A program made the position numbers. Of a DNA stretch of 64,000 bases, positions 12,001 through 13,689 are shown one piece after another. This DNA is from Escherichia coli (GTDB taxonomy: Bacteria; Pseudomonadota; Gammaproteobacteria; Enterobacterales; Enterobacteriaceae). Where the stretch lies: assembly GCF_009931435.1 (NCBI RefSeq), contig NZ_CP043414.1. One strand, written 5' to 3'. Numbering within the stretch: position 1 is the first letter of the stretch; each line of letters begins with the position of its first letter.

Positions 12001-13689
12001 GTGCTGGATGCCAAAGCGCCGATGGTGATGGACCGCAACTTCAAGCCGGGCTTCCGTATTGATCTGCATATTAAGGATCTGGCAAATGCGCTGGATACTT
12101 CCCACGGCGTCGGCGCGCAACTGCCGCTCACAGCTGCGGTTATGGAGATGATGCAGGCACTGCGTGCCGATGGTTTAGGAACGGCGGATCATAGCGCCCT
12201 GGCGTGCTACTACGAAAAACTGGCGAAAGTCGAAGTTACTCGCTAATGACGTCGTGCCCGGATGGCGTATTGCAATCCGGGCCTGGAATCCAGGCCGAAT
12301 AAGAGAAACGCCCTCCGGCGTCATGTGGTAACAGGCATAGGTATGAAAATCGTAATCGCCCCAGACTCTTATAAAGAAAGTTTATCTGCCAGCGAGGTTG
12401 CGCAGGCGATAGAAAAAGGATTTCGGGAAATTTTTCCTGATGCACAGTATGTTTCCGTTCCGGTTGCCGACGGTGGTGAAGGAACGGTGGAAGCCATGAT
12501 TGCAGCCACCCAGGGGGCTGAACGTCACGCCTGGGTTACAGGGCCGCTGGGCGAGAAAGTGAATGCCAGTTGGGGGATCTCCGGCGATGGCAAAACCGCG
12601 TTTATCGAAATGGCGGCGGCCAGTGGGCTGGAACTGGTACCTGCGGAAAAACGCGATCCACTTGTGACCACTTCACGCGGTACTGGCGAATTAATCCTGC
12701 AGGCGCTGGAGAGCGGCGCGACAAACATTATTATCGGCATTGGCGGCAGCGCCACCAACGACGGCGGCGCAGGCATGGTGCAGGCGCTGGGGGCGAAATT
12801 ATGCGATGCCAACGGCAATGAAATTGGTTTTGGCGGCGGTAGCCTTAATACTCTGAATGATATTGATATTTCCGGCCTCGATCCGCGCTTAAAAGATTGT
12901 GCTATTCGCGTCGCTTGTGATGTCACCAATCCGCTGGTGGGCGATAACGGCGCATCGCGCATCTTTGGCCCACAAAAGGGAGCCAGTGAAGCGATGATTG
13001 TCGAGCTGGACAATAACCTCTCTCACTATGCCGATGTCATTAAAAAAGCGCTGCATGTTGATGTGAAAGATGTCCCCGGCGCAGGAGCTGCGGGCGGTAT
13101 GGGCGCGGCGCTGATGGCGTTTCTTGGTGCGGAACTGAAAAGTGGTATTGAAATCGTCACGACGGCGCTGAATCTGGAGGAACATATTCACGATTGTACG
13201 CTGGTGATCACCGGTGAAGGGCGTATTGACAGCCAGAGTATACACGGCAAGGTTCCGATTGGCGTCGCAAACGTGGCGAAAAAGTACCATAAACCGGTGA
13301 TTGGCATTGCGGGTAGCCTGACCAATGATGTTGGCGTTGTACATCAGCATGGCATTGATGCGGTCTTCAGCGTATTGACCAGTATTGGTACGTTGGATGA
13401 AGCATTCCGCGGGGCTTATGACAATATTTACCGTGCTTCACGTAATATCGCCGCGACACTGGCGATTGGAATGCGCAACGCGGGGTGACAAGGGCGCGCA
13501 AACCCTCTATACTGCGCGCCGAAGCTGACCAGACAGTCGCCGCTTCGTCGTCGTCCTCTTCGGGGGAGACGGGCGGAGGGGAGGAAAGTCCGGGCTCCAT
13601 AGGGCAGGGTGCCAGGTAACGCCTGGGGGGGAAACCCACGACCAGTGCAACAGAGAGCAAACCGCCGATGGCCCGTGCAAGCGGGATCA

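Follow-up and report, generated by a model that had tools for sequence, protein, structure and literature searches.

A fossil REP pair, and candidate intercistronic mRNA barrier, in the garR-garK spacer of Escherichia coli

We have studied the spacer between garR and garK in a 64,000-nucleotide (nt) stretch of DNA from Escherichia coli (NCBI RefSeq assembly GCF_009931435.1, contig NZ_CP043414.1), which we call the window and to which all coordinates refer unless another locus is named. The element in the spacer is a pair of inverted relics of repetitive extragenic palindromic (REP) sequences, at 12256-12286 and 12290-12319. The whole occupies 12256-12319, or 12246-12324 with its outer arms. 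It is derived from REPs, but it can no longer be counted among them as the family is defined; that is, it is a fossil. What remains is a decayed, probably immobile, bacterial interspersed mosaic element (BIME), and we consider that it probably, though far from certainly, serves as an intercistronic exonuclease barrier or attenuator in the gar mRNA, every aspect of its function at the RNA level being one that we infer.

Results

The origin of the element is seen by comparison with other genera. For this purpose we collected the garR-garK spacers from 80 genomic loci encoding relatives of GarK. These fall into two unrelated types, A and B. Spacers of type A are about 95 nt long, and are found in Escherichia, Pseudocitrobacter, Lelliottia, some Enterobacter and Citrobacter, Salmonella arizonae, Kluyvera, Trabulsiella and Superficieibacter; 33 orthologous spacers of this type align end to end with that of the window, with a mean column identity of 71%. 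At the orthologous position Pseudocitrobacter, Lelliottia, Enterobacter and Kluyvera carry a canonical REP pair (…CCGGGCCTAC att GTAGGCCGGATAAG…). The canonical spacers read GCCCGGTGGCGC..TTACCGGGCCTAC-att-GTAGGCCGGATAAGTGAAACGCCATCCGGCG, and the best-preserved form is GCCCGGTGGCGCTTAGCTTACCGGGCCTAC-ATT-GTAGGCCGGATAAGTGAAACGCCATCCGGCG. The latter comprises two inverse REPs (REP1 and REP2) with their CTAC/GTAG tags facing, and is a BIME, a 'TT dimer' in the terms of PMC3733652. The homology is one of both position and sequence, between the same two genes, and the Escherichia element descends from a canonical enterobacterial REP pair.

REP1 is of a type well represented elsewhere. At least 120 metagenome stretches contain its exact pattern, GCCCGGTGGCGCNNNGCTTACCGGGCCTAC, with at least 137 copies, several of them per long contig and none beside garR or garK. 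Among the matches listed, the non-gar REP1 is usually followed by a linker of 4-20 nt and an inverted GTAGGCCGG(G/A)TAAG…CCGGC REP. The REP1 type is a genuine dispersed multi-copy repeat. The tags of the pair have been altered in E. coli, where CTAC has become CTGG (12283-12286) and GTAG has become CCAG (12290-12293). The changes compensate one another, and the palindrome ggcctgg/ccaggcc is kept.

The element lies between the third and fourth genes in the order garP (9206-10540), garL (10556-11326), garR (11347-12246) and garK (12343-13488), with rnpB (13521-13897; RNase P class A in Rfam, 319 bits) directly after garK. By the RefSeq annotation of the identical E. coli sequence, garR encodes 2-hydroxy-3-oxopropionate reductase and garK glycerate 2-kinase. 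With the garR stop codon TAA at 12244-12246 (+ strand) and the garK ATG at 12343, the spacer occupies 12247-12342, confirming the length of 96 nt given in an initial annotation of this DNA; the spacer of E. coli K-12 is identical. That annotation placed here a REP-like double hairpin at 12256-12296, within which both hairpins are indeed present, the repeat search finding both inverted repeats. The first is relic 1 (12256-12286, - strand), which consists of GCCCGGATGGCGTATTGCAATCCGGGC and then CTGG in place of the canonical CTAC, so that on the - strand it begins with CCAG and not GTAG. The foot of this hairpin begins 9 nt downstream of the garR stop codon. Its stem has 8 base pairs (bp; gcccggat/atccgggc) together with a 2-bp inner stem, and includes the arms gcccgga (12256-12262) and tccgggc (12276-12282), which are 13 nt apart. 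The second, central hairpin, ggcctgg-aat-ccaggcc (12280-12296, + strand; arms 12280-12286 and 12290-12296), overlaps the first at 12280-12282. It is not a separate unit but arises where the two REP tails meet: relic 1 contributes its tail and relic 2 its head, with the 3-nt linker AAT (12287-12289) as the loop, and in canonical orthologs it reads GGCCTAC-att-GTAGGCC. Relic 2 (12290-12319, + strand) has CCAG for GTAG, followed by GCCGAATAAGAGAAACGCCCTCCGGC, and its own stem is only 4 bp with mismatches. Most of relic 2 lies outside the extent originally given, since the element continues to 12319. Finally, an outer inverted repeat with arms ATGACGTCG (12246-12254, + strand) and CGGCGTCAT (12316-12324, + strand), 89% complementary, is able to close the entire element as one long hairpin, as found both by the repeat search and in minimum free energy (MFE) folds.

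The ribosome-binding region of garK (12333-12345, + strand; CAGG within AACAGGC, and the ATG at 12343) is nearly invariant in spacers of both types. A scan of the + strand of the spacer for terminator-like sites, i.e., a GC hairpin followed by a T/U-run, found none, in agreement with the initial observation that no T-run follows the hairpins. A search of the spacer against Rfam gave nothing relevant, the sole match being a chance mascRNA (E 8.5). An alternative start for garK at the in-frame ATG at 12262, which would extend the protein at its N terminus (a 408-amino-acid open reading frame, 12262-13488), was considered and rejected. This ATG is part of the REP1 stem and has no Shine-Dalgarno sequence, the canonical orthologs do not have it, its frame on manual reading meets a TGA in the locus of Pseudocitrobacter vendiensis, and the RefSeq start of garK is 12343.

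Is the E. coli element still a REP? In several respects it resembles the enterobacterial REPs and BIMEs (the 'GTAG-3' family of Di Nocera et al., PMC3733652; y, z1 and z2 of Ton-Hoang et al., PMC3333891). It is extragenic and GC-rich, with a CCGG-type stem in an imperfect palindrome of about 30 nt; it has two inverse units separated by a short linker, with the tag ends facing and inner regions of unequal length; and the orthologous sites in other genera are occupied by canonical members of the family. Relic 1 forms the stem-loop expected of an imperfect palindrome of 30-40 nt, and relic 2 does so weakly in E. coli. The arrangement as an inverted pair, an architecture common to the non-gar loci, is kept, though the units of E. 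coli are degenerate. REPs of this family carry a conserved GTAG tetranucleotide 5′ of the stem foot, which is CTAC on the opposite strand. Both tags of the gar element, however, are CCAG/CTGG, in the window as in E. coli K-12, and the element is single-copy, with a median of one place per genome in 5425 E. coli genomes at the sensitivity of blastn, by which very short matches are missed.

Family membership was also measured with a covariance model, R1, constructed from 72 distinct REPs taken solely from non-gar metagenome loci, with which the 64-kb window was scanned with filters off. As positive controls, nine REPs scored 14-30 bits (E <= 0.024). Clusters of canonical E. coli REPs and BIMEs with intact CTAC/GTAG, which served as controls, lie at 28440-28537, 31582-31676, 32790-32887, 54474-54560 and 57662-57843. 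Relic 1 was matched at 12258-12280 (+ strand) without its tag end, at only 11.2 bits (E 0.21, tenth in the window), and relic 2 at 12292-12319 (- strand), at 7.6 bits (E 3, 17th in the window). Each of these matches is non-significant alone. They lie on opposite strands about 12 nt apart, and from the E-values we estimate the chance of two such matches in this arrangement as about 5e-4 per window. Among all the REP-model matches in the window only relic 1 has a GCCCGG stem. In a single local alignment to y/z1 consensus sequences, the spacer is only in the top 6.6% of 96-nt windows.

On the same model the orthologs form a graded series. REP1 scores 48.6 bits in Pseudocitrobacter, Lelliottia and Enterobacter, 25 in Kluyvera, 12-15 in Citrobacter amalonaticus, 8.7-11.4 in Escherichia and 8.6 in S. 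arizonae; REP2 scores 38.9 bits at best, then 20-25, with 11.2 in S. arizonae and 7.6 in Escherichia. Members of the Enterobacter cloacae complex have truncated type A spacers of 56-76 nt in which REP1 is canonical (31-48 bits) and REP2 is partly or wholly deleted (loci L020, L034, L035, L044, L046 and L053).

We describe the element as a fossil because the E. coli copy lacks the GTAG tag and the copy number of the family, and scores below significance on the REP model. The initial description as REP-like is upheld by the ancestry of the element. Binding and cleavage by TnpA-REP require GTAG, and the CT of CTAC is indispensable (PMC3333891); for this reason the REP pair of E. coli is probably immobile, its altered tags presumably placing it beyond the action of the enzyme.

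The K-12 RefSeq record NC_000913.3 has no REP annotation at garR-garK. This is uninformative; the record is also without repeat features at 5565-5669, where GenBank annotates a REP.

The spacer has changed very little. It is identical in 5350 of 5425 complete E. coli genomes (98.6%), while the 296-nt stretch obtained by adding 100 nt of coding sequence at either end reaches 99% identity or more in only 1644. Comparison with the loci of four other Escherichia species-level genomes (L003-L006) gave a divergence of 2-7% for the spacer, versus 14-33% for the four-fold degenerate sites of garR and 36-39% for those of garK. The difference between the spacer and the four-fold sites is significant by the Fisher test, with p = 1.5e-3 to 2e-6 using garR alone and 8e-8 to 2e-9 using garR and garK together. 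The REP-bearing intergenic region that follows rnpB provides a control, and in these same genomes it can be aligned over only 44-68 nt. The gar spacer aligns over its full length at 93-98%, and rnpB is 98.7-98.9% identical; the gar element is thus far more conserved between species than a region of mobile REPs. The substitutions within Escherichia fall in the loops, the central hairpin and relic 2, leaving the REP1 stem untouched. Judged by these rates of divergence, the fossil REP pair is under clear, strong purifying selection.

The two flanking genes differ from each other in this comparison, garK being far more diverged than garR between the window and the other Escherichia species (0.36-0.39 against 0.14-0.33 at four-fold sites), yet almost without variation over its first ~90 nt. 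The pattern suggests either a recombination boundary or a constraint on the 5′ end of garK that is unrelated to the REPs.

We have also examined the predicted folding of the transcribed element. The folding energy was -22.4 kcal/mol for 51 nt (z = -2.0 relative to shuffled sequences), -37 kcal/mol for 84 nt (z = -2.7) and -40.2 kcal/mol for 111 nt (z = -2.5). The MFE fold is one long hairpin and not two adjacent ones. In this, the 5′ half of relic 1 (CCGGA.GGCGU, 12258-12268) pairs with the 3′ half of relic 2 (ACGCC.UCCGG, 12309-12319) around the central hairpin. The window as a whole is about 4-fold enriched in perfect GC-rich 7-bp hairpins, with 44 registers compared with 11 ± 3 in dinucleotide shuffles, and on manual reading of the list the garR-garK spacer is the sole site at which two different hairpins of this kind abut. 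It is the homology, rather than the energy of folding, that shows the feature of the spacer not to be due to chance.

The type A orthologs allow the predicted pairing to be compared between species. All those tested fold at -35 to -42 kcal/mol, and G-U wobble pairs are tolerated in the stems. The outer stem of REP1 is 100% paired across 32 distinct orthologs. A local model, comprising the REP1 hairpin, a 4-bp central stem and the REP2 hairpin, has 91% of cells paired, versus 22-48% in slid controls, with 7 pairs changed on both sides, a count that is inflated by the relatedness of the sequences and by the inverted-repeat construction of REPs. In the central hairpin the pairs 42-59 and 43-58 (alignment columns) show double changes, AU to GC in 8 sequences and CG to GC in 5. 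A long-range model, in which the two relics pair with each other, has 89% of cells paired, and its outer helix has no compensatory changes. Although the MFE fold is a single long hairpin, we rejected this as the structure under selection, since its outer helix is uncompensated and has been hit by substitutions in Escherichia species (T82C and G24T). The local REP1 hairpin is never broken in any ortholog. The pairing in the orthologs is consistent with a conserved hairpin, and does not amount to proof of one.

What takes the place of the REP pair in genera that lack it? Type B spacers, of about 60-65 nt, are found in the Citrobacter freundii group, Klebsiella, Raoultella, Leclercia, Silvania, Atlantibacter, Mangrovibacter, Siccibacter, Buttiauxella and Cedecea. 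They contain no REP. Instead, in at least 45 spacers, an 8-bp GC hairpin stands 6-9 nt after the garR stop codon and is followed by a T-rich run. The hairpin is GGGCGCG-loop-CGCGCCC, with compensated variants GGGCATC/GATGCCC, GGGCACC/GGTGCCC and GGGTGCG/CGCACCC, and in each of the three loci tested it was given a terminator-like score on the + strand. The type B spacers of Kosakonia and Phytobacter have an extra palindromic insert. The spacers with this insert (L021, L030, L037-L039, L042, L043, L045, L050, L055, L056 and L058) are 103-131 nt long, and combine the terminator-like hairpin with a second, different palindrome, e.g., CTTCAGGCC-GCAGTG-GGCCTGAAG. The garR-garK junction seems to attract palindromic elements.

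In a neighbor-joining tree of GarR and GarK the deepest branches are all type B or other. Type A occurs in at least seven clades spread through the tree, and alternates with type B within groups of close relatives. Most simply, the terminator or attenuator hairpin would be ancestral, and the REP pair would have replaced it, either by spreading through recombination or by repeated origin. A stable stem-loop directly follows the garR stop codon in every lineage, including those of the Enterobacter cloacae complex with truncated spacers. Because every lineage keeps one, the stem-loop some 6-9 nt after the garR stop codon, rather than the mobility of REPs, appears on this comparison to be the feature maintained by selection.

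Two further observations concern the history of type A spacers. The spacer of Escherichia sp. MOD1-EC7003 (L007, 2905-3000) is one base removed from that of Pseudocitrobacter vendiensis (L008, 2905-3000) and is unlike those of other Escherichia, a similarity that points to recombination or horizontal transfer at this junction. In canonical type A spacers the REP pair stands between two direct copies of an 8-nt sequence, CGTTGTGC (…GA-CGTTGTGC-CCGG … CCGG-CGTTGTGC-AG…); the copies in L008 are at 2907-2914 and 2977-2984, corresponding to about 12250-12257 and 12319-12326 in the window. These copies may be coincidental, may stem from a duplication at the time of insertion, or may follow from the outer palindrome. 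No flanking direct repeats were seen at the non-gar REP pairs of the metagenome stretches.

Discussion

The genes garP, garL, garR, garK and rnpB are treated in the literature as a single transcription unit, so the element between garR and garK should be transcribed as part of the garPLRK(-rnpB) mRNA. The RNA would fold into a stable stem-loop beginning 9 nt past the garR stop codon, either as the REP1 and central hairpins or as one long hairpin of about -37 kcal/mol. Since the element is without a U-tract it would not be an efficient intrinsic terminator. We propose that it acts as a barrier to 3′-5′ exonucleases (PNPase and RNase II) in the manner of the classical intercistronic REPs, possibly with some partial attenuation linked to Rho or to the BIME, such that the garPLR segment would outlast or outnumber garK. 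The distance of 9 nt from the stop codon might in addition lead to stalling of ribosomes, as reported for stop-proximal REPs.

There is precedent for such a role. Intercistronic REPs are the classical case of differential stabilization within operons (Higgins 1982 and Newbury 1987, as cited in PMC12306157 and PMC6061677). Like the REPs of malE-malF and hisJ-hisQ, the gar element is a REP-derived stem-loop without a U-tract that follows the upstream cistron of a catabolic or transport operon within one transcription unit, with a predicted stability of -22 to -40 kcal/mol. The effect expected is also the same, i.e., an upstream segment guarded from 3′-5′ exonucleases and differential expression within the operon. 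The two classical examples differ in being canonical REPs demonstrated by experiment, while those of gar are degenerate. More generally, stable stem-loops that lack a U-tract, REPs included, define the steady-state 3′ ends of transcripts after Rho-dependent termination or cleavage and protect them against PNPase and RNase II, and they could switch between an intrinsic and a Rho-dependent mode by the uridine content downstream alone (Dar and Sorek 2018, PMC6061677). The gar element is similarly stable with no U-rich tail, and the presence of a T-run in type B spacers and its absence in type A match the proposed switch. It differs from these protective stem-loops, and from the BIME attenuation of Espeli 2001 as cited in PMC6061677, in being located in the middle of an operon and not at the end. 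Protection from exonucleases is plausible, and is supported indirectly by the strong conservation of the spacer and by the non-homologous, terminator-like hairpins that take the same position in other genera.

A number of observations weigh against this proposal. The z-scores of the predicted folds are moderate (-2.0 to -2.7). The covariation is subject to the inflation noted above, and the change of CTAC/GTAG to CTGG/CCAG in Escherichia may represent just one or two events. Of the hairpins, only that of REP1 is kept everywhere: the central one is weakened in E. albertii, and the stem of REP2 is weak in E. coli. Third positions hardly vary within the first ~90 nt of garK, even in genera that have no REP, and the first ~40 nt are conserved across all the genera examined; since this part of garK is conserved without REPs, the local conservation must partly have another cause. 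A literature search for data on 3′ ends, half-lives or expression ratios of garR versus garK found none. One published data set gives mRNA fold changes of -2.9 for garR and -2.6 for garK, with -5.8 for garP and -6.2 for garL, and thus no discontinuity at the spacer, though a constant attenuation would be invisible to fold changes.

The position of the hairpin raises the possibility that it acts on translation of the upstream gene. REPs located less than 16 nt from a stop codon lower translation (Liang, Rudd and Deutscher 2015, as summarized in PMC12306157), and the gar hairpin, at 9 nt, lies within this limit. A ribosome terminating on garR would have to unwind it and might stall, followed by cleavage of the mRNA and tagging by transfer-messenger RNA, with less GarR as the result. 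The distance is the same in the type A orthologs and is 6-9 nt in type B, and were the outer arms (12246-12254 and 12316-12324) to pair, the structure would begin at the stop codon itself. However, there is no evident reason for down-tuning GarR in particular, and terminator hairpins are often this near to stop codons for unrelated reasons. We regard such a translational brake as unlikely to be the principal role; it is nevertheless compatible with the barrier proposed above.

We consider it about equally improbable that the element has no function, and is simply an old REP insertion that lost its tags by drift. Its conservation would then have to arise from a low local mutation rate, from hitch-hiking with the start of garK, or from self-templated repair of the palindrome. 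Such a relic would be expected to have lost the characteristics of the family as this one has, the REP2 stem is degraded, as is the central hairpin in E. albertii, and the adjoining 5′ end of garK is also highly conserved; moreover, the full pair is evidently dispensable in the Enterobacter cloacae complex, where spacers of 56-76 nt have lost REP2. Yet the spacer diverges some 3- to 7-fold more slowly than the four-fold sites of garR, which is the slower-diverging of the flanking genes, and it is invariant in 98.6% of E. coli genomes while its flanks vary. A genuine REP-bearing intergenic region close by turns over rapidly. And a stable hairpin is present after the garR stop codon in every lineage, the truncated ones among them.

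Functions at the level of the DNA seem to us very improbable. BIMEs and REPs are reported to bind several proteins and to have a part in DNA topology, and the near-perfect long palindrome might serve as a BIME-type site for DNA gyrase, IHF, Pol I or nucleoid proteins, or extrude as a cruciform. But the 3-nt linker is too short for an IHF site, the terminator-like analog in other genera points to a role in RNA or transcription, and the G-U wobbles in the stems fit pairing in RNA better than in DNA.

Control of garK initiation, which the initial annotation had suggested as modulation of garK translation, is as improbable and finds no support here: although the element ends about 10 nt upstream of the Shine-Dalgarno region, has in ATAAGAG (12299-12305) a perfect 7-nt complement to CTCTTAT (12366-12372) within garK, by which the ribosome-binding site might be occluded or exposed, and carries GGA motifs at 12260-12262 and 12285-12287 that might bind CsrA, the Shine-Dalgarno region (~12333-12336) is outside the REP stems and largely free, it and the ATG are unpaired with the element in the predicted folds, and CTCTTAT is equally conserved in genera without REP2 and does not covary with AAGTG variants. 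Where the Shine-Dalgarno sequence is included in a fold, only a weak 3-bp helix touches GGC at 12334-12336. The long-range pairing of ATAAGAG with CTCTTAT was rejected as a candidate structure, as there is no covariation, the garK segment is kept in lineages without REPs, and the pairing does not occur in the MFE fold. Of the two GGA motifs, which are 25 nt apart, one is in CGGAUGG. The other forms part of the central hairpin's tip; it arose with the change from CTAC to CTGG, and is found also in spacers of the Citrobacter amalonaticus type. From the motifs, binding of CsrA is conceivable; a literature search for CsrA together with garK found nothing.

Returning to the element as an intercistronic barrier or attenuator, a more far-reaching history may be suggested, tentatively and with rather more doubt than the role itself. 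The REP pair would be an exapted mobile element, one that replaced an ancestral intrinsic attenuator, lost its tags by compensating mutations and became an RNA valve in the operon, nearly invariant in Escherichia; REP and terminator hairpins would then be interchangeable alleles that have been swapped repeatedly in the Enterobacteriaceae.

The element belongs to a textbook class, and its interest is modest, as a tag-less and probably immobile fossil under selection, and for the alternation of REP and terminator at one junction. REPs are among the commonest non-coding elements of E. coli, and whether single copies are functional or tolerated is still debated. Here, according to lineage, one junction may be occupied by a terminator-like hairpin, by a REP pair that is canonical and mobile, by a REP that is truncated, or by a fossil pair without tags, and it offers a clean natural comparison. 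It is a convenient test case for the domestication of REPs, and for the interchangeability of REPs and intrinsic terminators in setting expression ratios within an operon. For annotation, the lesson is that regulatory hairpins derived from REPs can escape REP finders based on a consensus. The practical consequence is small, amounting at most to tuning of GarR or GarK in a non-essential pathway for sugar acids.

Sequences Downstream of rnpB

Beyond the gar genes, rnpB is followed in the window by a strong terminator-like hairpin, aacccgccagcgtaaactggcgggttttt, and two REP-like sequences (13909-13934, 13964-13984 and 14022-14050, respectively); the REP model gives the last of these, on the - strand, 29.7 bits. 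A search downstream of rnpB in the window found no tandem array. In two of the other Escherichia genomes, partial copies of the 3′ end of rnpB (rnpB 328-377, about 74-77% identical) recur every ~118 nt downstream of the gene, with three in L004 (4612-4906) and two in L006 (4615-4793).

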